Shown here: positions 2,368-19,715 of the stretch, one piece after another
Layout of the letters: every line of letters begins with the position of its first letter
How positions within the stretch are numbered: position 1 is the stretch's first letter
Source: Candidatus Heimdallarchaeota archaeon
GTDB taxonomy: Archaea > Asgardarchaeota > Heimdallarchaeia > Heimdallarchaeales > Heimdallarchaeaceae
Direction of reading: 5' to 3'
Length of the DNA: 20,770 bases
Assembly: GCA_030668875.1 (NCBI GenBank)
Contig: DAOVER010000048.1
Coordinates: 1 to 20,770, forward strand
Position numbers and translations under genes: made by a program
Notes under the pieces: model-generated
Databases searched by the model: none
Seen by the model: the letters and a program-made list of their open reading frames with translations, nothing else
What the model was told of the DNA's origin: nothing

Positions 2368-5300
2368 CTAATCACACTTACTGAAACCACATTGCCTGCA
2401 AGTATAGCACCCCTCTGCAAATTCTAACATTCCACCACAATCAGGACAAGCTATTATTCCATTATGCTTAACAACGTGATTACTGTTAATGTAATTAGCT
2501 AAAACTTGAGATATACCATCAGCGCAAGATAAGACTGTTTTACCTTGATAGAAGTTAGGACTGGGGCACCTTATACCAGCGAGATGATCAACTACAGATT
2601 CAACTTTTACCCCAGATCTGAGGGATAGGGATATCAACCTACCTACTGCTTCACTCTGGCTAGCTATACAACCACCACTCTTACCAACTTGAACGAAAAC
2701 CTCGCACACTCCTTTTTCATCTTTGTTAACCGTAACATAGAGATTACCACAACCTGATCTTATCTTGTGGGTTTGTCCAACTGTTACTTCAGGTCTTTCT
2801 CGAGGTTCAAGTTTTTCTATGTGTCTAAGCTGTTCATCAATTTTTGTTTTTGATTCATCTTTCTTTGTTGATAATACTTGATATTTTCTCGAACCATCTC
2901 TGTAAACTGTTATTCCTTTACAACCCTTCTTATAGGCAAGAAGATAGGATTCAGCTATGTCTTCTTTGGTTGCAGTCGAAGTGAAATTGATAGTTTTTGA
3001 GACAGCATTATCAACATAGTTCTGAAAGACAGCTTGCATTTCGATATGATCATTTGGAGTAATATCATGAGTGGTTACAAACAGCTGTCGTATTTTCTTT
3101 GGTATTTCCTCTAATTCTTGAATTGTATTTGTACTAGCAACTTTTTCTAGAAGTTCTTCAGAATAGATATCCTTTGCTTTTAATCGCTCTTCAAAAAGTG
3201 GATTAGCTTCAAACAATTTCCTCCCATCTAGAACATTGCGAGTAAAAGCTATTGCGTAAAAAGGTTCGATTCCACTTGAACATCCTGCAATTAATGATAT
3301 TGTTCCTGTGGGAGCGATGGTTGTAGTTGTAGCATTTCTCATATATTCATATTTATCCTTGAAAATACTCTTATCAAAATTAGGGAAATTACCCCTTTCT
3401 TTGCCTAATCTGGATGATTCATCACGAGATTTTTCTTGAAGGAAGGACATAATTTTATTAGCTAATTCAAGAGCTTTTTTAGAATTGTAGGAAATACCAA
3501 GAGAAACCAAAACATCTGCAAAACCCATAATGCCAAGACCTATCTTGCGATTGGCTTTAGTCATTTGTTCAATTTCAGGAAGAACGTATTGATTCCTATC
3601 AATGACATTATCAAGAAAACGAACAGCTAAACGAATAGATTCCTCTAAAAGAGACCAATCGATATCAGAATCTTTGACGTGCTTAAGAAGATTGATAGAA
3701 CCTAAATTGCAGGATTCATATGAGAGCAAAGGCTGTTCACCACAATTTCTCGTTTTAAGATAAACCACCTTTTTATTTGTATCATCCTCAGATAGAAATC
3801 CTCCTATGAAGAAAGTATGATAGTCATCTACAGTACCATTATATACATCATTAGTTCCGATATACGTCACACTTACTATTTTGTGGTTATACATTACAGA
3901 TCCTTCTTTCAGTTCCTTGTAAGTTGAAAAACCATGTTTGGTTCCCAATCTGAAATGAATTTCCTCATCTTTGCATTTATTTTCCCACTCTTTTTTCAAG
4001 GGATCTCTTTCTAGCTGTCTCTTTAACTCTTTATACTTCTGTATCTGTAATTCCTTATTCTTTTGAGCTCTATCTTGATATGTTTTGTTGATACCTTCAT
4101 TTCGACTGATTCGAATTGTGGAATCAGTATTAAACGCTTCCATACAGCAGCTTTTACTACAATATCCTATCTCTCTACGAGAGAAACTAGTGTTAAAAGA
4201 AGACCCACAATTAGAGCAGATTTTCTTTACTTTAACTAAATTTCCATCAAGATAACATTCTAAATCTGTTTTTCTTCTGCTCTCTTCTAGTTTTCTTTCA
4301 GCCCTATTTCTAAATCCTTTTGCAGCGCTTTTCTTGTATTTTTTACTTTTCCATAAATCTTTAGAAATTTTTGATAATTTTTGTTTTAATTCAGGATTAT
4401 TTTCATGATGGTTTCTAATACTCTGACCAATTTTTCTTTTTGTTGAATCGTCTAATTTCACGCCAAATCTTGGATTCTTTTCACCAACAACATCATAGAA
4501 AGGATTCTTCTTTTGATATTCTTTCCACTTCTTTTTATCTTTCTTAATTTTGTAAAGAGGATTCTTCTCTCCCTTCATTCTATTTGAATGATACTCGTTA
4601 TGTTCTGAGATGCCCATAATCTCTAGATTCTCAGGTTTATTGTTTTCAGAGTTAAAATCTCGGTGGTGTACTACACAATCTTTAGGAATAGAATTAGAAT
4701 TATTGTGATAAAAACTTGCAATATGTGTATGTTCATTTTTCTCGTGTCTCCCTTTATTATACAGTCTCCAGTATTTGTTGAATTCCGTCTTAGAGAATTT
4801 TCCTTTTTGTGATGATAGGCGTTTTGTTAAAATGTGTAAACTATCATCTCTCTTGAGTTGATCAGTTCGTCTAATTGATCCATCACGAAGATAGAATTTA
4901 TGATCAGCTGTTGCATTAATTTCATCACCTGAATCCAGTAGGATTTTATATACATCAACTTTTTCTCGTGTAAGCCTCGGATTTCTCATATATCTTACAG
5001 TAATTTTTCCTTCAGTATTTTCCGTGAACACAGGAACATCTTTACCTTCATCGGCTAATTGTTGTATTGGAACTGAACCTCTCCCATCTGCAGTGTATAC
5101 TAGCGTATCACCAGTTACACATGGGTTAGTGCTCTCTATTTCACCTACCTCAGGTGTTGGATTATCTCTGTTTATTCTGTCGATGAAAACCATCCCTGGT
5201 TCGCCATTTTTCCAAGCCATCTCTACTATTTTATCAAAAACTCCTTTTGCATTAAGTTTGCCAACAATTTGTTTATTTCTAGGGTTGATTAAATCATAAT

Positions 5301-8300
5301 CACTATTCTCATCTACTGCTTTCATGAAAACATCTGTAACTGCAATAGAGATGTTGAAATTAGTTAATTTAGTTTGATCTTCTTTGCAGGAAATAAATTC
5401 GAGAATATCAGGATGATCAACTCTGAGAATGCCCATGTTAGCTCCACGACGACGGTTATGAACTAATACACCATTTGCCACAAATTTATTTGAACCTGAT
5501 ACTTCGATATCCATAGTATAGCTATCCTCTTTTTCAATAGAACGAACTTGGGAATAATAGTATCTCGGATTCGAAATTTCCTTGAAATGTGTATCTTCTT
5601 TCAAAAAAGGAAATTTCTCAAATAATTGAAGAAGTCTCTTTCGTGTAAGCCCTCTATAAGAACTGGGAGATTTTGAGATATAGTGATAAATTGCTCTATA
5701 AAACAATCTATCAGCTCCTCGTTTTGTTCTTCCTTTATTGGTTCCTGCACCCACGTAATTATATTGTTGCCTTAATTTAGAACCTTGATTTGGAATATAA
5801 TCCACATATTCGAAAGCTTTTTGCGGAAACCTCTCAACTAGGAGATTATTCTTTCTACTCACTGCGAAACCTATTTCATCCTTGAAAATTTTCAAGCTTC
5901 TTTCAGGAATAACTGAGAGACAATAAATTGGTTTATCACCAAAGCTTCCTAAACGGTTTTTATTTAACGAAATTGAGGAAACAACTCCTAGACCTAACAA
6001 TAATTGCTGAAGTTTTTTAACCAAAGTTTCTGAAATTGAGTAATAACGTGGATAACCATCAGTATGTACATCCCCATCGCCAGAAAACAAACCTTTAATG
6101 AAACTTTTAGCAACAGATATAGAGGATTGAAATATGATTTGTGGAACAAAAGCATCAGCTGAAGAGGTTTTCTTCCAGTTCATTTTCTCAAAGTATTTAC
6201 ATAAATCTTTAGAATAAAAAAATAAATCAGAATAAGTGTTCTTATCATCAACCATACCCACAGGAAGATCAAATGTTTTTAACATAAGATCTTTAATCCT
6301 TTGAATTAAGTCAGGATCCTTATTATCAATACTGAAAACTATTCTTCCTTGCGTACTGATACAGCCATCTGCCATGTATAAACCTAAAATCTCTCCAAGT
6401 TCAGGTGTCATTTTTTCTGGAATAACAATCGGATTAGCATTATGATGCTGTTTTTTGATGGAAGGCAGAAAGACATCGCTCCCACAGTGCCCGTCTAATG
6501 AAATAACTAACCAATCACCCACCTTTAGATTTTCTGCTTCCTTCCAAACAAAATCACCTTCCTCATTTATGGATGCAATAAGATGGTTGTAAGTTGGCTT
6601 TATTTCTATACCTAAATCTGTAGTTATTTTTATTACTTCAGCAATGCTATTGTCCATAGAAATATATGCATGATTAAAATCTTCACCATCATACACAAGA
6701 GATTTAGTAGGATTATCACTTAAAGGTGGACAGTTGAGGAGTTCTCCAATTGGTATGGATCCCGTATCTGTACGAATCAAACTATCTGTAGCAACACACC
6801 CCCCTTGTTTTATTGTATTTGTTGCTGCATTGAAAACTTCCATAAAAGAAATTGGTCCCGATGCAACACCTCCAGTTGTCTTAACCACATCATTTTTTGG
6901 TCTAATCTTACTGAAGGAGAAACCTGTATTATGAACTGTAACAAATTGTGTGTTCCCTCCTAAGTAATTTTGATAAACAGGAACAGTGAAATCATAAAAA
7001 ATCTTTTTCTCTTTGAATTTGTTGATTGAATTTATTTTTATCAATCTATTGCTTACTAATTTTGTTCTTCTTGGTGTTTTTTTTGTTAGTAATTGTTGTG
7101 TGAAACCTGTTCTGAATTCAATACTCCACCAAGATCCTTTGATATCACGATCTCTTTCATCTTTTCGGTATCGAACTGAACAGTTGATTCCTATTAATGA
7201 CAAATGTCGTACAATGAGATCTTTCAGTTCTTCTGAACCTGTAGCTATACCAGATTTATCTTTACCAATCCATCCATCTGAATCAATTAATCCAGATATG
7301 AATGCTTTTGGATTAGGACACATAAAAGAGGACTTTGGAGTTTGTTTTCTATTGATTTCATTCCCATTTATTTTAACAAATCGTTTGATTAAACTAGCCA
7401 TTCTCAAATTAATGTACTTATTGTCATCTCTTAGATTATATTTAGAATGAATTGACAGTGTTTTGCAATTATTTCTAGGATCTTTATACACACTTCCTGA
7501 AGAATCAGCAATTCTTTCTAAAATCTCGCTAATTCGATTAAGGAATCTATCTTCAGAACTACAAAAACGTATTCTGACACCATTTTTTGTACTGTCTATG
7601 CTTCCATCTCCCAAAAAGAATCCATATAACCACCAGAAATCAGGCTCTTCATTTAAGAAGATGTTGTCATGAAAAGATGGTTTTACTAACCAATCTGTTT
7701 CAGTTATTTCATCAGCTCTTTTTGTTTTATATATACCTCCACTTCTTCCATCGGGAAGAGGTTCATAAACGTAGAACGGATGCCAATTAGTAACTTCAAT
7801 AAACCCTTCAGTACCAAACTCTATTCTATAATATTCATTCCTCTGAAATTTCCATAGTTGGGATACTTTAGCTCTTGTAAAACTCTCTGTGGTTTCATCA
7901 AAAGAAAAAACACTAAATGGTTTAGCAGAATGGCCTTTTTCATCAGCAGGTATTTGACTAAAACCTGGAATTTCTTCAATTGGTACAAAACCATATTCTA
8001 GTGTAGGTATAATGGTTCCAGCTGCACAACATCCTCCTCCTCCTTGGTGAATTAAAGCAGCATTTTTCACTCCATCAAATATCGAGGTCATGTCATCTTC
8101 AACAGGTAAAACAAAACAATTGTGTACTGCTACACAATTTGCTACATAAGTATGTTCTTCTTCAACTTCGAAATTATAAACCTCACTTTCCTCATTGATA
8201 ATCGAAATTTTCCTGATAGGTAAAAACAAAGTATCGTTAATAATTTTGTATTTCAATCTCTGCATTGAAGCTTGTGTCATTCCAGTAATTTTCTGGGAAT

Positions 8301-9519
8301 AAATATTTTTCATTAAATCTCCTGCTTCTGATGCTGAAAGTGTACACGAATAAGGTTGTTCAGTTCCTATTTCAGGGAAGGAGGGTGTGCTGAAACTGGA
8401 AACAATTCCTATTCGATTTAAAATCACCCAAGCAGCATAAACAAGATCGTAATTACACATCACTAATCTTGCATTGTGGATATGTCTATTCAGATATAAA
8501 GTACTATCTCCTCTAAAACAACCTGTGACATAGCCTTCCTGTTTTTCTGGAGGTAAAGTGAGCATCCAAGTAGGTAGTTTTTTCTTATTAAATCCACGAC
8601 CAACAATATTATTGATAAATTCTGCAAATACCTTAGAGTGGAATCTTATATTGATCCAATGTCCATTAGAATTTTCCTCTATTCTTGATTCTAATCCAAA
8701 TAACTTCTTAGCTAAACAAAGTACATCTTCTGCATATCCAATTTCCTTATCAGAAAAAGTAAATCTAACCATATTCATGTCAGAATCCCCTTCACTAGCA
8801 TAATATCCAATAAATCGAAGAAAATCAGCTGAAATAGGGATAGTGTTCTTTATTTGTTTAACTTTATCATTTACACTACCATGTCTTAAATGAGAGTCAA
8901 TTGTAGCTTGTTTTATGAGATCATCCTCAACAAAATATCTATCATCTTTTAAGTAATCACAAATTTCAATAGTATCAATATCTTTGATCTCTTTGGGATA
9001 AGATACCGCTACTAAATCTTGTTCTTCTAAATCTTTAACCAAAACCCAATCCACATCACTATTTTTATAAGCTAAGATTGGGTGGTCTTCTGTTACTGAG
9101 AGCGTGCTAGTTGGAAGTTTCCAAATATCAATGATGTAATGCTTCTTGCTTCTTCTAACCATTGTGTTAGTAACTTTGCTGAAATTTCCATCAGCTGTGA
9201 GAACAAGCTCTCCGACTTCTATGTCTTTTATTCTCTTGAACCCATTAAACGTATTAATTTTCTGGTTTTCCGTAAAACACGCCGATAACATTCCTAGCTT
9301 TGTACCTGCATTCATTAATGTTGGAGAATTTGGAAGGAACTTTAGTGAGGCCATCAATTCAAAGAATTTCTCTTTTTCTTCTTCAGTTTCTCCTATGAAA
9401 TCCGCTACACGTTTAAACAATCCTTCTGGTGTTTCCAAAGGTTTCTTGTTTTCATCGCGTAACAGATAGCGTTTCTCTAGAACAGTTAGAGCATTCTTTG
9501 TTAATTCTATTGTAGTCAT
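2368..9519 (-). CDS. nrdJ: Class II adenosylcobalamin-dependent ribonucleotide reductase precursor with four inteins (spliced length about 721 aa; C-terminal TSCPD-like domain and Zn ribbon; no ATP cone)
   Basis: Joined exteins give FLPNSPTLMNAG..LSA|CFV, GGG|TGFSFS, QGG|RRRGANMG, NP|CGEQPL..ESCNLGSIN, RKIGLGIMG, TIAPTGTIS, SGIEP, AVSKTINF and KGITVYRDGSR (class II type, no class I Tyr pair). The C-terminus has GCGNLYVTVN..RCP..SCAD and CPDC..CYTCRQC. AAGGGGAT lies upstream of the ATG. Confidence 0.95.
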   Translation of the reverse strand: MTTIELTKNALTVLEKRYLLRDENKKPLETPEGLFKRVADFIGETEEEKEKFFELMASLKFLPNSPTLMNAGTKLGMLSACFTENQKINTFNGFKRIKDIEVGELVLTADGNFSKVTNTMVRRSKKHYIIDIWKLPTSTLSVTEDHPILAYKNSDVDWVLVKDLEEQDLVAVSYPKEIKDIDTIEICDYLKDDRYFVEDDLIKQATIDSHLRHGSVNDKVKQIKNTIPISADFLRFIGYYASEGDSDMNMVRFTFSDKEIGYAEDVLCLAKKLFGLESRIEENSNGHWINIRFHSKVFAEFINNIVGRGFNKKKLPTWMLTLPPEKQEGYVTGCFRGDSTLYLNRHIHNARLVMCNYDLVYAAWVILNRIGIVSSFSTPSFPEIGTEQPYSCTLSASEAGDLMKNIYSQKITGMTQASMQRLKYKIINDTLFLPIRKISIINEESEVYNFEVEEEHTYVANCVAVHNCFVLPVEDDMTSIFDGVKNAALIHQGGGGCCAAGTIIPTLEYGFVPIEEIPGFSQIPADEKGHSAKPFSVFSFDETTESFTRAKVSQLWKFQRNEYYRIEFGTEGFIEVTNWHPFYVYEPLPDGRSGGIYKTKRADEITETDWLVKPSFHDNIFLNEEPDFWWLYGFFLGDGSIDSTKNGVRIRFCSSEDRFLNRISEILERIADSSGSVYKDPRNNCKTLSIHSKYNLRDDNKYINLRMASLIKRFVKINGNEINRKQTPKSSFMCPNPKAFISGLIDSDGWIGKDKSGIATGSEELKDLIVRHLSLIGINCSVRYRKDERDRDIKGSWWSIEFRTGFTQQLLTKKTPRRTKLVSNRLIKINSINKFKEKKIFYDFTVPVYQNYLGGNTQFVTVHNTGFSFSKIRPKNDVVKTTGGVASGPISFMEVFNAATNTIKQGGCVATDSLIRTDTGSIPIGELLNCPPLSDNPTKSLVYDGEDFNHAYISMDNSIAEVIKITTDLGIEIKPTYNHLIASINEEGDFVWKEAENLKVGDWLVISLDGHCGSDVFLPSIKKQHHNANPIVIPEKMTPELGEILGLYMADGCISTQGRIVFSIDNKDPDLIQRIKDLMLKTFDLPVGMVDDKNTYSDLFFYSKDLCKYFEKMNWKKTSSADAFVPQIIFQSSISVAKSFIKGLFSGDGDVHTDGYPRYYSISETLVKKLQQLLLGLGVVSSISLNKNRLGSFGDKPIYCLSVIPERSLKIFKDEIGFAVSRKNNLLVERFPQKAFEYVDYIPNQGSKLRQQYNYVGAGTNKGRTKRGADRLFYRAIYHYISKSPSSYRGLTRKRLLQLFEKFPFLKEDTHFKEISNPRYYYSQVRSIEKEDSYTMDIEVSGSNKFVANGVLVHNRRRGANMGILRVDHPDILEFISCKEDQTKLTNFNISIAVTDVFMKAVDENSDYDLINPRNKQIVGKLNAKGVFDKIVEMAWKNGEPGMVFIDRINRDNPTPEVGEIESTNPCVTGDTLVYTADGRGSVPIQQLADEGKDVPVFTENTEGKITVRYMRNPRLTREKVDVYKILLDSGDEINATADHKFYLRDGSIRRTDQLKRDDSLHILTKRLSSQKGKFSKTEFNKYWRLYNKGRHEKNEHTHIASFYHNNSNSIPKDCVVHHRDFNSENNKPENLEIMGISEHNEYHSNRMKGEKNPLYKIKKDKKKWKEYQKKNPFYDVVGEKNPRFGVKLDDSTKRKIGQSIRNHHENNPELKQKLSKISKDLWKSKKYKKSAAKGFRNRAERKLEESRRKTDLECYLDGNLVKVKKICSNCGSSFNTSFSRREIGYCSKSCCMEAFNTDSTIRISRNEGINKTYQDRAQKNKELQIQKYKELKRQLERDPLKKEWENKCKDEEIHFRLGTKHGFSTYKELKEGSVMYNHKIVSVTYIGTNDVYNGTVDDYHTFFIGGFLSEDDTNKKVVYLKTRNCGEQPLLSYESCNLGSINLLKHVKDSDIDWSLLEESIRLAVRFLDNVIDRNQYVLPEIEQMTKANRKIGLGIMGFADVLVSLGISYNSKKALELANKIMSFLQEKSRDESSRLGKERGNFPNFDKSIFKDKYEYMRNATTTTIAPTGTISLIAGCSSGIEPFYAIAFTRNVLDGRKLFEANPLFEERLKAKDIYSEELLEKVASTNTIQELEEIPKKIRQLFVTTHDITPNDHIEMQAVFQNYVDNAVSKTINFTSTATKEDIAESYLLAYKKGCKGITVYRDGSRKYQVLSTKKDESKTKIDEQLRHIEKLEPRERPEVTVGQTHKIRSGCGNLYVTVNKDEKGVCEVFVQVGKSGGCIASQSEAVGRLISLSLRSGVKVESVVDHLAGIRCPSPNFYQGKTVLSCADGISQVLANYINSNHVVKHNGIIACPDCGGMLEFAEGCYTCRQCGFSKCD
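3745..5121 (-). mobile_element. Intein 4 in NrdJ (459 aa, HNH endonuclease type)
   Basis: Junctions STNP|CVTGDTLV ... VYNGTVDDYHTF...KTRN|CGEQP; block B TADHKF; HNH motif VVHHRDFNSENNKPENLEIMGISEHNEYH; two GEKNP motifs; CSNC..YCSKSC. Confidence 0.92.
5455..6798 (-). mobile_element. Intein 3 in NrdJ (448 aa, LAGLIDADG type) with non-canonical Arg at +1
   Basis: Junctions KQGG|CVATDSLI ... TMDIEVSGSNKFVANGVLVHN|RRRGANMG; block B TYNH; motifs LGLYMADG and IKGLFSGDG. The +1 codon is CGT at 5454-5452. Confidence 0.92.
6928..8031 (-). mobile_element. Intein 2 in NrdJ (368 aa, LAGLIDADG type)
   Basis: Junctions QGGGG|CCAAGTII ... FYDFTVPVYQNY..VTVHN|TGFSFS; block B TNWHP; motifs YGFFLGDG and ISGLIDSDG. 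Confidence 0.93.
8119..9279 (-). mobile_element. Intein 1 in NrdJ (387 aa, LAGLIDADG homing endonuclease type)
   Basis: Junctions LSA|CFTENQKI ... VYNFEVEEEHTYVANCVAVHN|CFVLP; block B TEDHP; endonuclease motifs IGYYASEGD and VTGCFRGDS. Confidence 0.93.
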
Positions 9520-11294: not shown

Positions 11295-12830
11295 ATGCAA
11301 GAAGATACAGGCGAAGCTTTTACTGATACAGCTGCTGTTCCGATTCTTGAAGAAACATACCCCGTCAGTCCTCCATTTTCCTATGTATTAATCCAAACTG
11401 ACCCAGTTTCTAAAAGAACACAATATATGGTTGTTGAGATTCCACTCGACAGCAAAGAACAAGCTATCTATAAGAAAATCATGGATATCATGATTGACGA
11501 ACTTGATGTTGATCTTTCCGTTCTAAAATCCACAGAAAAAGCTGAAGAGTTTCTTAAAAAGAAAATAGTTGACATTATCAAAAGATATCGAATTTCTCTA
11601 AATGAATCACAATTTGAGAAAATTATGTATTATCTAGCTCGCGATCTTATAGGTTATGGTAAAATCCAACCTTTTATGTTAGATCCAAATATAGAAGATA
11701 TTTCATGTGATGGTATAGGTATACCAATCTATGTATGGCATAGGAAGTACGAATCAATTTCAACCAATGTTTCTTTTGACAGCGCAACAGTTCTGGATAG
11801 TTTCATCATAAAATTGGCTCAAAGAGCAAACAGACATATTAGTATTGCTAATCCACTGTTGGATGCTTCTTTACCAGATGGTAGTAGAATCCAGCTAACT
11901 TATGGAAAAGAAGTAACTCAAAGAGGGTCTACATTCACAGCAAGAAAATTCAAAGCAGATCCATTTACAATTACAGATCTTATTTTATACAATACAATAG
12001 ATCTAGATATAGCTGCATATTATTGGTTCACAATGGAACATAATGTTAGTACTCTTATTGCAGGGGGTACTGCAGCAGGAAAAACCACTCTACTCAACAC
12101 TATATCTATGATGATTAAACCAGACTTGAAGGTTGTAACCATTGAAGATACTGCAGAATTGAATCTTGCACACGAGAACTGGATACCAAGTGTTGTTCGT
12201 TCAGGTTTTGGTGAAACAACTGAAACTGGGTACAGACGAGGTCAGATATCTATGTATGAGCTACTTCGTGCTGCAATGAGACAGAGGCCCGATTATATTA
12301 TTGTAGGAGAAATCCGTGGTGACGAAGCTTACGCAATGTTCCAAGCAATGAGTACAGGTCACAGAGGTTTAGGAACTATTCACGGTGACTCTGTTGAAGG
12401 TGTCATTCACAGGTTAGAAAGCAAACCAATGAACATTCCACGTTCAATGATGAAGTCTCTTGATTTAATCCATGTTATTCGTAAAGTCCGCTTACAATCT
12501 AAATTCGCTCGTAGAACCCAATCCGTAACAGAATTGATTGGCCTTGACCCTGTAACAGAAGAAATATTGACAAATAAATTATACCAATGGAATCCAAAAG
12601 ATGATACTTTCATCTACTTCGGGAGAAGTTATGTTCTTGAGAAAATAATGGAAAATACAGGATTGGAAGAACAAGAAATCTTCGACGAATTAGAAAGAAG
12701 AAAAACCATTCTCCGATGGATGGTTAAGAAACGTATAAGATACTTTGAGGATGTAGCATCTGTTATTCAAGAGTATAATTCTGATCCAGATAGAGCTTTG
12801 GAAAAAGCTCGAAAAGGACTAAAAGCTTAA
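11295..12830 (+). CDS. Type II/IV secretion / type IV pilus assembly ATPase (FlaI/ArlI-CpaF-VirB11 family)
   Basis: DPNIEDISCDG, LDASLPDGSRIQ, FTARKF, Walker A GGTAAGKTT, Asp box IEDTAEL, Walker B YIIVGEIRG, His box TIHG, and a C-terminal ELERRKTILRWM..Y..DP typical of archaeal members. Confidence 0.93.
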   Translation: MQEDTGEAFTDTAAVPILEETYPVSPPFSYVLIQTDPVSKRTQYMVVEIPLDSKEQAIYKKIMDIMIDELDVDLSVLKSTEKAEEFLKKKIVDIIKRYRISLNESQFEKIMYYLARDLIGYGKIQPFMLDPNIEDISCDGIGIPIYVWHRKYESISTNVSFDSATVLDSFIIKLAQRANRHISIANPLLDASLPDGSRIQLTYGKEVTQRGSTFTARKFKADPFTITDLILYNTIDLDIAAYYWFTMEHNVSTLIAGGTAAGKTTLLNTISMMIKPDLKVVTIEDTAELNLAHENWIPSVVRSGFGETTETGYRRGQISMYELLRAAMRQRPDYIIVGEIRGDEAYAMFQAMSTGHRGLGTIHGDSVEGVIHRLESKPMNIPRSMMKSLDLIHVIRKVRLQSKFARRTQSVTELIGLDPVTEEILTNKLYQWNPKDDTFIYFGRSYVLEKIMENTGLEEQEIFDELERRKTILRWMVKKRIRYFEDVASVIQEYNSDPDRALEKARKGLKA

Positions 12831-13606: not shown

Positions 13607-14290
13607 TTACACTTCTAACCATAAAAGAATGTTATTTGATAATACAGCAGATAATACTTGCCCAACCTGTAGATCTGCTTCATATCTTCCATCTAAAAGG
13701 TTACTCACGGAAGTTGTAGGTTCTATAGTAATTGTTGCATCGTTGATAATGGTTCTATAACCATTGCTAAGCTTATAGATATAGATATAATTTTCAGTCC
13801 CTATTGTTTCTGATATTTCTAGATAATATGTTGCACCAAAAACGAATGTTGCATCAAAGTAATAATCTGGACTATCAATATGAATAGATATTTCCATAGA
13901 ACAAGTAATATAAGTTGGATTAGCAGATGTGCTGGAGTTTGATATACTAAATGTTGAGTTATCGAATGTTAACGTTGAGGGTAAATTGTGGCTATCTAGG
14001 AAAGATTCTACCACAGTAATTCCTTCAGTTATTAATACAATAATGCTATCTTTTGTATAACTTCTTGAATATTGAGAGATTGCAACATCAACAAGTTGTT
14101 CTAATGACGAAACAGAATTTTCTACGTAGAAATTAATTTGTCCTTGATTAGGTGTTGGATTGATATACGGACTTTGAGTAATTCGATATACTGTTGTTGA
14201 TAAGAGTACTAAATAAATTAAGATAACAATTGATAGGAGAAGAAAAACTTGTCCTTTTCTTTTTCTCACTTTGAATATATTATTACCCAT
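13607..14290 (-). CDS. Pilin-like protein with class III signal peptide (Gln +1)
   Basis: Likely start ATG 14290 (SD GGTG; the track starts at GTG 14299): MGNNIFKVRKRKG|QVFLLLSIVILIYLVLLS. Confidence 0.7.
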   Translation of the reverse strand: MGNNIFKVRKRKGQVFLLLSIVILIYLVLLSTTVYRITQSPYINPTPNQGQINFYVENSVSSLEQLVDVAISQYSRSYTKDSIIVLITEGITVVESFLDSHNLPSTLTFDNSTFSISNSSTSANPTYITCSMEISIHIDSPDYYFDATFVFGATYYLEISETIGTENYIYIYKLSNGYRTIINDATITIEPTTSVSNLLDGRYEADLQVGQVLSAVLSNNILLWLEV

Positions 14291-14291
14291 T

Positions 14292-14759
14292 TTAGACACC
14301 TATCAACCAATATTGAATATGAATTTGGTGAGGAGCATAATCACCATTTCTAGATAATAAAAGATAATCTATTCCCATAGTTTCCTCCGTATAGGTATAA
14401 CCTTTATTTATCCAACTACTTTCTATAACCTCCTCCGTTACAAGATTTTCACAATAAAGTGTGAATCTACCATTGTCAGGCAGAGTTACCAAAATAGCTT
14501 GTTCAATTATAGTTTTTATTGAAGCGATATCTTCAGCTGTTCCAGAATTAAGTGCTATCAAAAATTCATTCAATTGCCCATTAGTATCTAAAGTTGTCAT
14601 AGCTTCATACAACTCGACGTTGTAACTAGGAACAATTGGAGGTTGTGTCGCAATTCGCACTTCATACAAAGCAGTAACCATGATAATCATTACAGAAACT
14701 GCAATGAATGCTTCAATAATAAACAACTGACCTTTTTTGTTCATTATTTTTCTTCTCAT
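14292..14759 (-). CDS. Pilin-like protein with class III signal peptide (Gln +1, Glu +6)
   Basis: Likely start ATG 14759 (GGTGA 5 nt upstream; alternatives 14765 and 14744): MRRKIMNKKG|QLFIIEAFIAVSVMIIMVTAL. Confidence 0.72.
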   Translation of the reverse strand: MRRKIMNKKGQLFIIEAFIAVSVMIIMVTALYEVRIATQPPIVPSYNVELYEAMTTLDTNGQLNEFLIALNSGTAEDIASIKTIIEQAILVTLPDNGRFTLYCENLVTEEVIESSWINKGYTYTEETMGIDYLLLSRNGDYAPHQIHIQYWLIGV

Positions 14760-14764
14760 ATTCA

Positions 14765-15922
14765 TCACCAATACCAAACTCGACACTTAACTAGTAGACC
14801 TCGCATATTCATTGTATATGTTTCAGAGATGTAAGTCTGTTGATTGAGATCGGAATATGGTCCGTAAATTCCTCCATCAGACTGTCTTAAAAACATAGGA
14901 ACGCCAAGATATCCTGCCCTATATTCTATATTTTCTCGTTCATGTACAACAACTACTGACAAACCATTAGCAGGCATAGCTACTTGCTCACCAAAATAAA
15001 TTTCTCCTTCAACGCTACCAATTTGTTGAAGATCATGAATAAAGTAGGAAACACTAGGATCTTCAAATGGAAAAACAACTATAGCTTTGGCGACATCACT
15101 CAAAGGAGCTCTAGTAACACTTACATCAACTGCACTATAATCTACATCAGTATTCTCTCTTACAAAGGGAGTATAGTCCATCGTTATTTCCGAATACTCT
15201 AATCCTCCTCCTTTGTATAATCTCATAACAGTATAATCTTGATAAACTTCTCCAACCTCAGCAAAAACCACGATTGTATAATAGTCACTCATTGTTGTCG
15301 AAAATGAAGAGTGATAGCTGATGGAACCAGAGATATTTTGTGTTGTTGTAGAGTTTATTGCAACTGAACCATCGGCATCGATAACAAATGCCCAGATTTT
15401 TGCGTCGTCTATACTAGTCTGGAATTCCTTAACGGAGCCATAAAGATTTATGTTGCCTAAGGAAGCTGTATATGCATCAATTGATACACGAATTGGTGAG
15501 CTAATTTCAATGGCAAAATCGTTAAGTAGTCCATAGGACGTTTTAACATTAATATAATTTAAACTCCAATAGCTAGTTATGCCAGAAACTAATCTGTTGA
15601 CTTTTGTGAAATCAAGTGAATGTTGATTATTCATTAAGCCTAAGCGGAAATCAGTCATTGAGGCTGTTCCAATCTGACCCCAATTGGAGGGAGATCCCTC
15701 TGTAAGAAAGACATTGTGATATAACCTGCTCAAATCCTGTTCCTTTGAATAAGTTTCCATTTGAATAAGTGAAGGAATCAGTAGATTTGTTAGTACTAAT
15801 ACAACTTGACTAAATGCTATAATAAAAATTAGCATAGCTAAAGCAAAATCAACTCCTCTAACTTGAGCAAGTTTACTCTTTCTGATTCGCTTCAGACTAC
15901 GCTTCAGACTAGATTTTGTCAA
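14765..15922 (-). CDS. Large pilin-like/adhesin-like protein with class III-like signal peptide (Gln +1, Asp +6)
   Basis: TTG start with SD AGGAG; MTKSSLKRSLKRIRKSKLA|QVRGVDFALAMLIFIIAFSQVVLVL, followed by EGSPSNW..FRLGL and a beta-rich extracellular part. Confidence 0.68.
   Translation of the reverse strand: MTKSSLKRSLKRIRKSKLAQVRGVDFALAMLIFIIAFSQVVLVLTNLLIPSLIQMETYSKEQDLSRLYHNVFLTEGSPSNWGQIGTASMTDFRLGLMNNQHSLDFTKVNRLVSGITSYWSLNYINVKTSYGLLNDFAIEISSPIRVSIDAYTASLGNINLYGSVKEFQTSIDDAKIWAFVIDADGSVAINSTTTQNISGSISYHSSFSTTMSDYYTIVVFAEVGEVYQDYTVMRLYKGGGLEYSEITMDYTPFVRENTDVDYSAVDVSVTRAPLSDVAKAIVVFPFEDPSVSYFIHDLQQIGSVEGEIYFGEQVAMPANGLSVVVVHERENIEYRAGYLGVPMFLRQSDGGIYGPYSDLNQQTYISETYTMNMRGLLVKCRVWYW
15888..15911. 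repeat. Perfect 12-bp tandem duplication (CGCTTCAGACTA x2)
   Basis: Read directly; encodes SLKR-SLKR in the leader of the 385-aa pilin-like protein. Confidence 0.85.
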
Positions 15923-15925
15923 TTT

Positions 15926-16357
15926 TTATTCTCCTTTTTCTTCTGATTCATCACCCAATATACGTTCTTCTAGTAGTGATTTTATCTCGGCAAGAGTGGC
16001 TTCTAGTTCCACTAGTTCCATACCTTTTTCTAGAAGATTATTGGCTCTTTCTTGCATATTTTCAGCGTTTTTAATCTTTTCAGAAACAAGATTTTCAACT
16101 TGTTCCTTGAGACCCGCTAAATCTGTTTTTGTGCTCATCATTGATTCTATTCGCTCAATTTTGTCCTCCAAAGGACCCAGATCAACAGAAACTGAACCAA
16201 CAGATCCTTTAGAAGAAGTACCGTCAGAGCTTGGTCTACCAGTTTTATCTAGGGTACCCATCATTCTTACAATATTAAAACTGATTTGATTAACAACTCG
16301 TTTAACTTCCCCTATTTCATCTTTTAGAGATTTGACATCATCTTCTAATTTAGGCAT
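15926..16357 (-). CDS. Uncharacterised soluble coiled-coil protein
   Basis: SD GGTGA; heptad-like segments LEDDVKSLKDEIGEVKRVV and LKEQVENLV...LEATLAEIKSLLEE separated by a Ser/Gly linker; no TM segment. Confidence 0.8.
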   Translation of the reverse strand: MPKLEDDVKSLKDEIGEVKRVVNQISFNIVRMMGTLDKTGRPSSDGTSSKGSVGSVSVDLGPLEDKIERIESMMSTKTDLAGLKEQVENLVSEKIKNAENMQERANNLLEKGMELVELEATLAEIKSLLEERILGDESEEKGE

Positions 16358-16373
16358 ATGGTTTCACCTTTTA

Positions 16374-17303
16374 TTATACATTTATAGCGATTAACGGATT
16401 GTCTGGTTGAATAAGTATTTTAAAAGCAAACCAACCAATAAACATCATTACAACAGAGTGCATTAATCCGGCTTTTATGGACATTTTTGACATCTTTCCT
16501 GCTACGAGACCTGAGAAAAAGCCTTGGACAGCAAGCATGTGTAGAAATAATATCTCCAACGTGTCTAAATCTATCTCCATTAAAAACATACCAGCTGTTT
16601 GATCTGCTGAGATATTTGCTGAACCAAATGGAATAAAGAATGTTATGAACAAGATTACAACAACCATGATGAATATTACATAGGAAGCATAGACTATCCA
16701 AACATAAGGCTTCATTGCCCCCTCTCTTTCTTTCTTAAGATTAAGAAGGGTTTGAATATGATGCTCAGTTGCTTCAAAAATCTCTTCGAGATTTCCTCCT
16801 GACCTTTCCGCTTCAAGAATAAGTATAGTTGCCCTTTGAGCCAAAGGAGTATCAACTGCAGACTGAAAATCTTCCATTGCTTTGTTGAATGGTATTCCCC
16901 AAGTGATTTTACTTGACATTTTTCTTAGTTCAGGAGTTAATGGTCCATAATGCCTTTTAGCAGATTCTTGTATTGCTCTTGGTAAACTCATACCTGTTCG
17001 TTGTGCATTACTAATCTCTCGAAGGAGATAAGGTAAATTTTCATCTATTCTTGATTGTCTTCTTTCTTCTCTTAAAACTATTAGAAATGTGGGAATGCCT
17101 ATAACAACGATTATTGCCAGGATAACAAAATCATTGATATCTAGAATTGTTATGAAGTCTCCACCGCTACTTGTTGCAATAACATCTACCAATCCGAGAG
17201 TTACTAAAATTACTCCGGAAATGATAGCTATCGCCCAGTAAATCACATCTTGAGTAATTTGAAACTGTTTTGTTTCTACTTCTACTTCTTCGCCTACTGA
17301 CAT
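16374..17303 (-). CDS. Type II secretion system F family platform protein (TadB/TadC/FlaJ-like)
   Basis: Likely start ATG 17303 (SD GGTGA; the track starts at GTG 17312); IDENLPYLLREISNAQRTGMSLPRAI...YGPLTPELRK...ITWGIPF..AM...ERSGGNL; several TM helices. Confidence 0.88.
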   Translation of the reverse strand: MSVGEEVEVETKQFQITQDVIYWAIAIISGVILVTLGLVDVIATSSGGDFITILDINDFVILAIIVVIGIPTFLIVLREERRQSRIDENLPYLLREISNAQRTGMSLPRAIQESAKRHYGPLTPELRKMSSKITWGIPFNKAMEDFQSAVDTPLAQRATILILEAERSGGNLEEIFEATEHHIQTLLNLKKEREGAMKPYVWIVYASYVIFIMVVVILFITFFIPFGSANISADQTAGMFLMEIDLDTLEILFLHMLAVQGFFSGLVAGKMSKMSIKAGLMHSVVMMFIGWFAFKILIQPDNPLIAINV

Positions 17304-17312
17304 CTCATTCAC

Positions 17313-18179
17313 CTACATTTCTGGTTGTTGTGCGTCTATTAGCACAATAATTGCCAATTCTGAAATTGGAATAATTATATAAACTAAAACTGCCATCATT
17401 ATTGTGGAATTCTCAGCTCCAGCTCCTCCAAGCATTGACATCATAGCTAAAATAACTATAAAAAATATTGGAGACACTACACCTAGAACCATAAACAATT
17501 CAGCCATGATTCCTAGGGTTTCAATGAAATTCTTTTCTCTTTGGACTTTATCCTCCAATAGTGTTTCAGTGGATACTTCAAGAAATCTTTGAAGTTCTCC
17601 TCCTGAAGTAAAGGTTCCAATTATTCCTTCAAGAAAACTTGAATATTTGGGAGATGGAGATCTAAGAGAGGCTTGACTTAATGCAAGAACAATATCATAA
17701 CCAAAAACTTGAATATCTCTGGAAATTTTCTTTGCATCCTTAACAATAGCTTCGCCTATTTTTTCCTTCGTTAAAGAAAGAAAGATCCTATCTGGTGTAA
17801 CTCCAGCTGATGCCATTGCAGTCATATAACTTGATGCGGTTGGTAAGGCTGCTTCTAACTTGGTTTTTCTTACACCTACTAGATAACTAGGATAAACCCA
17901 ACTATACACAAACATACTCGTTAGAACTAAAATAGGTAATATTATTACTAGTATTATTGAGAAATTCTCAACTACGATATAAATAGCAATAAGAGATATC
18001 AATGATACAACAGCCAAAATTATTGCCCAAAAGATTCTTACGCTCAGGTACATTCTTACACTTTTATCTATCCCGGCTTTTCTTAAAGTCAGTTTGAGAC
18101 CTTCAAATTCAGCTAAATAAGGTTCAACTAATCTACCAATATACGAATAAGCAATTGATTCAATAATTCTTGAACTCAT
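17313..18179 (-). CDS. Type II secretion system F family platform protein (TadB/TadC/FlaJ-like)
   Basis: SD GGTGA; LRKAGI..LPTASSYMTAMASAGVTPDRIF...FGYDIVLAL...SPSPKYSSFLEGIIGTFTSGGEL..FL; TM helices at both ends. Confidence 0.88.
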   Translation of the reverse strand: MSSRIIESIAYSYIGRLVEPYLAEFEGLKLTLRKAGIDKSVRMYLSVRIFWAIILAVVSLISLIAIYIVVENFSIILVIILPILVLTSMFVYSWVYPSYLVGVRKTKLEAALPTASSYMTAMASAGVTPDRIFLSLTKEKIGEAIVKDAKKISRDIQVFGYDIVLALSQASLRSPSPKYSSFLEGIIGTFTSGGELQRFLEVSTETLLEDKVQREKNFIETLGIMAELFMVLGVVSPIFFIVILAMMSMLGGAGAENSTIMMAVLVYIIIPISELAIIVLIDAQQPEM

Positions 18180-18474: not shown

Positions 18475-19185
18475 ATGAGTCTTTATATTATACAATCCTC
18501 AGGAGAGTTAACTGAATGCTATAACAAGGAAGTAGCAATAAAATCCGAAAACGTTTTGTTAGTAATCTCTCACATGCAAAAGAAAATTTACACATGGATA
18601 GGGGGACAAGCATCACCACATTCAAAATTTGCTTGTGCAAGGGAAACTGCAAGAATTCGAATGGAACTTGGTTACAAAATTGTTAACTTAGAAGAATCAT
18701 ATACAACCGATGAATTTACTAAAGCAGTAGATGAGGCTTGCAACGTTAATTCTAAGGATATGCCTTCACCAAAACCAAAACCTTTGGCAGTCAAACCTCT
18801 AGAAATCAAAAAACCTGCCCCAAAACCAACATTGAAATCCGCAGCTAAACCAAAGCCAAAGCCAAAGCCAAAACAAAAAACTGGAACTAAAAAAGAAGTA
18901 ATCACTACAACTGAACGCAGATATAGCTCTACTATTGATACAAAAGTCATAGATGTAGAACATGTCATAAAGCAACTGAAAATACTTCCACCTATGAGTA
19001 ACAGCATAAGAGACTATATTATCATAGATGATTCTCTTTACATTGCTCCTGAAAATCTTGAGAAACCTGGAACTGAATCTAAAGTTTCATTACAAGATGG
19101 ATCATTTGTTGCAGATAATTATGTTCCAAGATTATTTTTAGAAAATGGTAAAATAATTGCAATTGAATTGTGGAGATCTGTTTAA
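18475..19185 (+). CDS. Asgard-type gelsolin-domain protein (single gelsolin domain + Pro/Lys linker + C-terminal X domain; 1DGelX-like)
   Basis: aa about 1-88: LYII..GEL....VLLVISHMQKKIYTWIGGQAS..KFACAR.....EESYTTDEF resembles a gelsolin repeat. aa 97-135 contain 12 Pro and 13 Lys. The C-terminal RDYIII...GSFVADNYVPRLFLENGKIIAIELW resembles the tail I recall from Asgard gelsolins. Confidence 0.75.
   Translation: MSLYIIQSSGELTECYNKEVAIKSENVLLVISHMQKKIYTWIGGQASPHSKFACARETARIRMELGYKIVNLEESYTTDEFTKAVDEACNVNSKDMPSPKPKPLAVKPLEIKKPAPKPTLKSAAKPKPKPKPKQKTGTKKEVITTTERRYSSTIDTKVIDVEHVIKQLKILPPMSNSIRDYIIIDDSLYIAPENLEKPGTESKVSLQDGSFVADNYVPRLFLENGKIIAIELWRSV
18850..18873 (+). repeat. Hexamer tandem repeat (CCAAAG)3 CCAAAA encoding PKPKPKPK
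   Basis: Read directly within the gelsolin linker. Confidence 0.85.
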
Positions 19186-19715
19186 TATCCCATCTTTTCC
19201 ATAACTTTTTTGGCAATGATAGTATAGATATCGTCAACTCCTTCGCCAAATTTGGCTGAAGATTCAAGAACCATGTAACCCTTTTCTTCCCATTTTTCAA
19301 TGGCTTCTTTAATCTCTACAGAACGTTCTTCTTCTAAATCAGTTTTGTTGCCAACAATAATAATGGGGATTTCCGGACATTTTTCTTCAACTTCATTAAT
19401 CCAGTTACTTATATGGTCAAATGATTCCTTTCTTGTTATATCATAAACGATAACAGCACCATGAGCACCTGTGTAATAACGTTTTCTTAAAGTGGCTAAT
19501 TTATCTTGACCAACTGTATCAAAAAGAACTATTCTAAGTATGGTATCCTCATCATATTGAATGTTCTTACTATAGAAATCAACTCCAAGCGTTGGAAGAT
19601 AAGATGAAGAGAAGCGGTTCTGGGTATAACGTACTGCTAAGCTAGTTTTCCCTACTGCATAATCCCCAGCATTAATGATTTTGATGATGTAAGTAACGTT
19701 AGGTGATAAGCTCAT
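19182..19715 (-). CDS. Rab-like small GTPase (Ras superfamily)
   Basis: G1 GDYAVGKT, G2 YLPTLGVDF, G3 DTVGQ, G4 NKTD, G5 SSAK; RabF-like LGVDF, YYTGA and IVYDIT; no C-terminal Cys. Confidence 0.92.
   Translation of the reverse strand: MSLSPNVTYIIKIINAGDYAVGKTSLAVRYTQNRFSSSYLPTLGVDFYSKNIQYDEDTILRIVLFDTVGQDKLATLRKRYYTGAHGAVIVYDITRKESFDHISNWINEVEEKCPEIPIIIVGNKTDLEEERSVEIKEAIEKWEEKGYMVLESSAKFGEGVDDIYTIIAKKVMEKMGY

Follow-up and report, generated by a model that had tools for sequence, protein, structure and literature searches.

An intein followed by arginine, and not by the cysteine, serine or threonine of canonical inteins, interrupts a ribonucleotide reductase (RNR) gene of Candidatus Heimdallarchaeota archaeon, within the 20,770-nucleotide stretch analysed here and called the window below (assembly GCA_030668875.1, contig DAOVER010000048.1, positions 1 to 20,770). 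This intein, the third of four in the gene, belongs to what is, judged from the sequences, an old and widespread lineage of mobile LAGLIDADG inteins that occupy loop 2 of archaeal class II RNR. The same comparisons indicate that some maturation route probably exists for this RNR. There is about an even chance, by our own analysis, that this route is a ligation in which no side chain of the C-extein takes part.

The host gene, intein 3 and its junction

The DNA comes from a 3.23-Mb metagenome-assembled genome (MAG) from marine sediment, made up of 99 contigs, 92% complete and 4.4% contaminated. From its open reading frame (ORF), translation and Pfam matches, the gene at 2368-9519 on the minus strand encodes a class II (adenosylcobalamin-type) RNR precursor of 2383 amino acids. 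The ORF matches PF00317, PF02867 (E 6.7e-123), PF12637 (TSCPD) and, four times, PF14890. The RNR barrel, an N-terminal all-alpha domain and likeness to B12-dependent RNRs mark the host as NrdJ, the use of the cofactor being predicted. The inteins lie at residues 81-467, 497-864, 908-1355 and 1467-1925 and leave five extein segments of 80, 29, 43, 111 and 458 amino acids. Excision of all four in silico yields a 721-amino-acid protein that is 74-76% identical, with no internal gaps, to the intein-free NrdJ of two genus-mates, and each of the four junctions is exactly restored when compared with intein-free genus-mates. The C-extein matches the NrdJ of T. maritima (1XJE; E 9e-17), to whose residues 206-321 it aligns.

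Intein 3 (5455-6798, on the minus strand like every feature of this gene; residues 908-1355) is 448 amino acids long and combines a HINT splicing domain with a LAGLIDADG homing endonuclease. It is inserted between the QGG and xRRGA motifs of loop 2, at a point that, in E. coli numbering, separates the equivalents of Gly296 and Val297. The N-extein ends with IKQGG (6799-6813), the first half of the loop, which places Gly at -1 and the Gln294 equivalent at -3. The C-extein starts with RRRGANMG (5431-5454), the second half, whose first residue is the non-nucleophile Arg1356 (CGT, 5452-5454), aligned to Arg206 of 1XJE; the Arg at +2 corresponds to Arg298 of the E. coli enzyme. Loop 2 of the E. coli enzyme comprises residues 292-301, CSQGGVRGGA. 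Its movements set substrate specificity in RNR, Gln294 and Arg298 are of key importance, and the replacement of Arg298 by Ala all but abolishes activity (PMC4728125). An earlier note, made from the letters of this DNA, had placed the insertion in loop 2, which the alignment to 1XJE and the E. coli definition of the loop bear out. Its assignment of the +1 codon to CGT at 5452-5454 is correct to the base, and the fragments of 152 and 569 amino acids that it derived for the two sides of the insertion are of the right size.

The splicing elements themselves are those of a canonical class 1 intein. Cys1 (TGT, 6796-6798; Cys908 of the precursor), the N-terminal nucleophile, opens the intein at QGG/CVATDS, the slash marking the junction. 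Block B reads TYNH (intein residues 69-72; 6583-6594), and blocks F and G (YTMD...FVANGVLVHN; 5455-5520) contain the block F Asp and the terminal His-Asn, within the final VLVHN of residues 1351-1355. Both LAGLIDADG motifs, LGLYMADGC (6361-6387) and KGLFSGDGD (6070-6096), retain the catalytic residue, Asp144 and Asp241 respectively, and endonuclease activity is predicted. The insertion is in frame at a conserved site of a conserved host, which its removal restores to the residue. The description of the intein as intact in the earlier note holds in all these elements and in Pfam (51.9 bits against PF14890, cut-off 35.8; 71.6 bits against PF14528). What fails to conform is the +1 residue, which is Arg here, and Lys, Arg, Val or Ile in relatives, in place of the Cys, Ser or Thr on which the branched intermediate of canonical splicing depends. 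The second block F His is also absent, as is the Ser/Thr that precedes His-Asn.

An AlphaFold 2 model of intein 3 reaches a predicted local distance difference test score (pLDDT) of 85 and a predicted template modelling score of 0.87, the flanks, +1 included, falling below pLDDT 50. Its best structural match is the TliVMA intein 7QSS, with template modelling (TM) scores of 0.65/0.72, then PI-PfuI 1DQ3 and PI-SceI. A sequence search of the PDB with intein 3 returned distant VMA and PI-PkoII inteins only. Intein 3 is a true intein and not a bacterial intein-like (BIL) domain, as its fold, its sequence family, the site in the host and the mobility module all show. Two ways of recovering a nucleophile were considered and rejected. 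Shifted boundaries do not fit, as both ends are colinear with those of the canonical sister group described below and excision at these ends restores the native sequence. Recruitment of a downstream residue does not fit either, the nearest Ser/Cys lying only at +22/+23.

The CGT codon could have arisen as an error in sequencing or assembly, or by an inactivating mutation of very recent date, since TGT and AGT are each a single change away and the codon lies within a (CGT)3 run; the earlier note gave this as its first option. The codon was checked on assembled Logan contigs, rather than on a raw-read pile-up, and the differences counted are those listed for them. Two samples of the probable source study gave contigs that are identical to the window over 5000-6858 and 5000-7000; these contigs are not independent of the assembly. 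An independent study supplies a 4.8-kb, 22x contig from an approximately 92%-identical relative, with 141 differences across 5105-6861; none of the differences listed for it lies within 5440-5523, the interval that spans the +1 codon. TGT, AGT and ACT, any of which would have supplied a nucleophile, are not among the differences listed for the contigs at 5452-5454. Three intein-free genus-mates carry KQGGRRRGANMG at the site, encoded CGC CGT CGT, so that Arg stands at the equivalent place and the (CGT)3 run is native extein rather than a slip. Intein-bearing and intein-free alleles of the genus are identical in loop 2. Other organisms in these metagenomes are represented by contigs that lack the intein and have IKQGG-R/K/T-RRGA through the site. 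Eleven +1 codons occur across the carriers of such inteins, CGT and ten others found in relatives (CGC, CGA, CGG, AGG, AGA, AAA, AAG, ATA, ATC and GTT); a whole old clade has, as a rule, Lys, Arg, Val or Ile in this position. An error, a recent mutation and a pseudogene are all refuted as explanations, and the probability that we would still give to an error or recent mutation is next to nil.

The contigs also bear on the surroundings of the insertion. In a 934-nucleotide, 5x contig from the same sediment sample, the extein flanks are joined without an intein (around 5436-6832). It represents an intein-free RNR allele of a co-resident organism and a potential homing target. In the approximately 92%-identical relative, 1276 letters replace the window's 7 at 6861-6869, a net in-frame gain of 423 codons within the 43-amino-acid extein, near TTGGVA/SGP. 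The gain is probably a fifth intein, inserted in this relative at a site that the window leaves unoccupied.

The lineage without a +1 nucleophile and its sister group

Another species of the genus, G015, has an orthologous intein (73% amino acid identity) at the same point, with the junction HN/KRRGA and Lys encoded by AAA. More widely, a HMMER search of 1.84 billion cluster representatives (50% identity), with intein 3 and its flanks as the query, detected about 65 full-length inteins at the QGG/xRRGA site. The tabulation of +1 residues that the earlier note had proposed, from which four mis-parsed rows were excluded, gives Lys 14, Arg 6, Val 1 and Ile 1, versus Thr 27 and Ser 15. The close relatives are not uniformly Cys, Ser or Thr at this position; Lys, Arg, Val and Ile are found instead. 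In a maximum-likelihood tree of 63 inteins, whose midpoint root is arbitrary, the 23 rows of the non-nucleophile type all lie on one side of a branch with a Shimodaira-Hasegawa-like approximate likelihood ratio (SH-aLRT) support of 100. One member of this clade has reverted to Thr. Two changes of +1 state suffice for the tree, versus 19 on average when the states are shuffled. Inside the clade, path lengths exceed 1 substitution per site. Related inteins at other host sites always have Ser, Thr or Cys at +1, which makes the non-nucleophile +1 specific, within the family, to the loop 2 lineage.

One pair of sister inteins, P0096 and P0115, may be described separately. Both end in VHN, followed by Lys in the former and by Thr in the latter, and both reside in RNRs that read VAQGG/x-RRGAQMG. 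It seems to make no difference to inteins of the non-nucleophile type whether a nucleophile stands at +1.

The distribution of the lineage was taken from a scan of one genome per prokaryotic species, using a pattern that included HN[KRV]RRGA. The junction is present in at least 55 species genomes (Lys 36, Arg 16, Ile 2, Val 1), figures that describe distribution and not frequency, because the pattern itself contains the junction. Carriers are found among Heimdall-, Hod-, Hermod-, Thor- and Promethearchaeota and among Micr-, Aenigmat-, Woese- and Nanoarchaeota. Further carriers are found in Methanoperedens, Thermoplasmata, Methanomassiliicoccales, Nitrososphaeria, Methanospirillum, Thermococci and a few bacterial MAGs.

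The sister group consists of class 1 LAGLIDADG inteins at QGG/T-RRGA or QGG/S-RRGA (for instance P0017, P0018 and P0021), inserted at the very same point. Like intein 3, with which they share 34-38% identity, these inteins have a HINT domain and a LAGLIDADG domain, are about 430-460 amino acids long, and are colinear at both ends. They also have Cys1, the block B TxxH, the block F Asp and the terminal His-Asn. Unlike members of the clade of intein 3, with Lys, Arg, Val or Ile at +1, they have Thr or Ser there. The remaining differences between the two groups cluster near the C-terminal junction. Ser or Thr directly precedes His-Asn in 36 of the 40 sister inteins and in none of the 23 clade members, whose residue at this place is Val, Ile or Leu. 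The second block F His (by spacing, the equivalent of His429 in Mtu RecA) occurs in 30/40 versus 1/23. Pro at intein position 4 is confined to the sister group (26/40 versus 0/23), and Arg at position 9 to the clade (16/23 versus 0/40). In block B, Lys or Arg is found at position 73 in 37 of 40 sister inteins versus 5 of 23 clade members, which mostly have Leu, and at position 75 in 30 versus 4, the clade having mostly Ala. The HINT blocks contain no conserved Cys, Ser or Thr that is specific to the clade. At the level of sequence, the C-terminal active site of the clade is remodelled, the differences being descriptive and not statistical because phylogenetically they amount to about one event.

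Maturation of the reductase

Among 22 clade representatives, Cys1 and the terminal His-Asn are kept in all, the block B Thr in all and its His in 19, and the block F Asp in 18, the others having Glu (two) or His (two). The LAGLIDADG Asp is kept in 19 of the 22 for motif 1 and in 21 for motif 2. Comparison of intein 3 with the G015 intein gives proportions of nonsynonymous and synonymous differences (pN and pS) of 0.18 and 0.71. The corresponding ratio of substitution rates, omega, is about 0.1 for the HINT part and the endonuclease part alike and 0.07 for the neighbouring extein, values that are only rough because synonymous divergence is saturated. From this pattern, the chemistries of Cys1 and of the terminal Asn are both under selection.

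The intein-bearing gene is alone in encoding an RNR barrel in this 92%-complete MAG, in which a class III RNR (NrdD) was not found, and G015 has a single RNR gene as well. Four genomes consist of a single contig: Ca. Heimdallarchaeum aukensis (CP084166), Ca. H. endolithica (CP084167), Nanoarchaeota archaeon YN1 (AP031373) and a Micrarchaeota chromosome (OY970229). In each the intein-bearing RNR is an open frame without stops and the sole RNR, and NrdD was not found in any of the four. The earlier note had envisaged a singleton allele with another functional RNR elsewhere in the genome; what is found is a clade-wide state in the only RNR of the MAG and of these four complete genomes. Because the gene is the only RNR, is under purifying selection and has conserved junction residues, the precursor must yield a functional enzyme. 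It may be added that the Ca. H. endolithica copy is about 67 amino acids shorter than that of H. aukensis and keeps both junctions (QGG/C...LVHN/RRRGA), which suggests decay of the endonuclease with retention of the junction chemistry.

These observations leave little room for a precursor that is not processed at all, either because loop 2 tolerates an insert of 448 amino acids or because the gene is dead and the deoxynucleoside triphosphates come from elsewhere. Some carriers are DPANN-type symbionts, which could scavenge nucleotides. However, the strict conservation of Cys1 and His-Asn and the low omega would be left unexplained, purifying selection on the extein is equally strong, the insert splits two essential loop 2 residues, and the two complete Heimdallarchaeum chromosomes encode no RNR but this one. 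We regard this explanation as very improbable.

The route that we propose, and that has in our estimation an equal chance of being right or wrong, consists of Cys1 thioester formation, Asn cyclisation and aminolysis by the α-amine of the +1 residue. In the first step, an N-S shift at Cys1 would convert the carbonyl of Gly(-1) into a thioester. As there is no +1 side chain to accept the acyl group, the terminal Asn would then cyclise and free the α-amino group of +1. This amine would attack the Gly thioester, giving the normal peptide bond QGG-RRRGA, and the intein would depart with a succinimide end. Between the two events the amine would be kept beside the thioester by the intein active site and by the already associated halves of the RNR fold. 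Several features of the junction might assist such a reaction. Gly at -1 provides an unhindered thioester, which should favour aminolysis; the pKa of the freed α-amine is expected to be lowered by the basic residues at +1 to +3; and extein halves that belong to a single barrel fold can position the amine after cleavage. The side chain at +1 would be irrelevant, since Lys, Arg, Val, Ile and once Thr accompany the same intein type. For the same reason, attack by the ε-amine of Lys is rejected as a general route, as Arg, Val and Ile occur within the same clade. A rejoined backbone would moreover be favoured because loop 2 relays between the equivalents of Gln294 (-3) and Arg298 (+2), which lie on either side of the junction.

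Alternatively, the intein may only cleave, the second option of the earlier note. Hydrolysis of the N-terminal thioester and cyclisation of the C-terminal Asn, with no rejoining, would leave a non-covalent two-chain RNR (152 + 569 amino acids) nicked in loop 2. Phage Aeh1 has an RNR large subunit that is split yet functional. Cleavage is, besides, the default fate of HINT domains without a +1 nucleophile, as seen in BILs (PMC7664689, PMC4031507). Against this outcome, the chain would be interrupted between the equivalents of Gln294 and Arg298, where loop 2 couples effector to substrate. Loop sequences are the same with and without the intein in one genus, with no sign of adaptation to free termini, and uncatalysed hydrolysis of a thioester would presumably be slow for an essential enzyme. 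We consider cleavage without ligation, the main rival of the proposed route, possible, though rather unlikely.

A number of points must nevertheless be set against ligation by the +1 α-amine. Canonical inteins in which +1 is changed to Ala cleave and do not splice, and type A BILs yield mostly cleavage products (PMC4031507, PMC7664689). Cys1 and His-Asn would be conserved just the same in an intein that excises itself without ligation. For every member of the clade, ligation, like cleavage, is a prediction from sequence. The carriers are nearly all MAGs, from uncultured or co-cultured organisms, and the monophyly of the clade hinges on the midpoint root. The saturation behind the omega values and the single event behind the active-site differences, both stated above, weigh on the same side.

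Ligation might also proceed through some other route, in which an internal nucleophile of the intein passes on the acyl group or a helper protein acts in trans. The remodelled C-terminal active site of the clade would be in keeping with this, and class 3 inteins show that internal nucleophiles can assume steps of the pathway (PMC2807308). However, the HINT blocks hold no residue of the required kind that is conserved in the clade alone, and the final transfer would still need an acceptor in the C-extein, in which the first Ser/Cys is 22 or 23 residues from the junction. This explanation appears improbable.

Should the aminolysis route be correct, intein 3 and its relatives could constitute a fourth mechanistic class of true inteins, mobile and endonuclease-bearing, that splice efficiently without a side-chain nucleophile in the C-extein and are templated by the folded halves of RNR. 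We would give this proposal neither more nor less credence than its negation.

Other features of the window and known splicing systems

The three other inteins of the gene are followed by Cys, Thr and Cys, in agreement with the earlier note. Intein 1 (8119-9279, minus strand; 387 amino acids, then Cys) and intein 2 (6928-8031, minus strand; 368 amino acids, then Thr) are of the LAGLIDADG kind. Intein 4 (3745-5121, minus strand; 459 amino acids, then Cys) has HNH_3 and NUMOD3 domains in place of LAGLIDADG, and its end, TRN/C, has Arg and not His in the penultimate position. Inteins make up 1662 of the 2383 residues of the ORF (70%), and two of the segments between them are reduced to 29 and 43 amino acids.

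Elsewhere in the window, a T2SSE-type ATPase of 511 amino acids (11295-12830, plus strand) contains no intein; the T2SSE homologue that adjoins the RNR gene of the relative GCA_964534625.1 has 1039 amino acids and a LAGLIDADG intein. Two T2SSF-family membrane proteins (16374-17312 and 17313-18179, minus strand) are preceded by four ORFs without a Pfam match (13607-16357, minus strand). Together with the nearby T2SSE gene, the T2SSF pair (region 13607-18179) looks, from its gene content, like a type IV pilus-like locus. A Ras-family small GTPase of 177 amino acids (19182-19715, minus strand; PF00071, E 2e-48) is matched by the Roc and Arf models too.

Type A BILs splice without a +1 nucleophile, by a proposed order of thioester formation, Asn cyclisation and aminolysis by the freed α-amine (PMC4031507). 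The route proposed above for intein 3 is the same one, so that the undescribed splicing or ligation route given as the third option of the earlier note has a precedent, which the note did not name. An example is BIL4 of Clostridium thermocellum, PDB 2LWY (Dassa et al. 2004; Aranko et al. 2013, reviewed in PMC4031507). Type A BILs resemble intein 3 in having a HINT domain, an N-terminal Cys, a C-terminal His-Asn and no +1 nucleophile. Unlike intein 3, they are found in variable regions of non-conserved bacterial proteins, lack a homing endonuclease and give mainly cleavage products. Intein 3 has a LAGLIDADG domain, and the loop that it occupies is a conserved part of an essential RNR of archaea. 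Its match to the intein Pfam model and its place in the tree, inside the canonical RNR inteins, show that it is not BIL-derived.

Another comparison is with the intein lineages that lack the N-terminal nucleophile. These are monophyletic, have lost a 'mandatory' nucleophile and compensate by an altered reaction path (PMC4031507, PMC2807308). They still need Cys, Ser or Thr at +1, whereas intein 3 is the reverse, with its Cys kept and the +1 nucleophile missing. Among inteins of solved structure, TliVMA and PhoVMA (7QSS, 7QST), PI-PfuI (1DQ3) and PI-SceI (1VDE) have the overall fold of intein 3 (Foldseek E 8e-27 to 1e-12, TM at most 0.72). They differ from it in their host sites and canonical +1 residues, and their identity to it is 11-20%. 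PI-PfuI is itself an RNR intein, yet no close relative of intein 3. By descent, intein 3 is closest to the canonical Thr/Ser inteins of its own site; by presumed mechanism, it is closest to the type A BILs.

To our knowledge, reviews of protein splicing all treat Cys, Ser or Thr at +1 as indispensable, and intein finders and annotators apply this as a rule. Insertion sites of inteins are described as 'preceding a nucleophile' (PMC5784728). A full-text literature search, with incomplete coverage of subscription papers, brought up no account of a true intein that lacks a +1 nucleophile. The rule is broken by a deep, widespread and selectively maintained lineage, in the sole RNR of many archaea, complete Asgard genomes included. 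If the exteins are not rejoined, many archaea make their DNA precursors with an RNR that has a nick in the specificity loop, and this would be no less of a surprise. If they are rejoined, the lineage would represent a new mechanistic class of inteins, and tools for traceless ligation could be modelled on this natural example. Inteins of such a fourth class could colonise sites without Cys, Ser or Thr, and would permit scar-free ligation at Lys, Arg, Val or Ile junctions.

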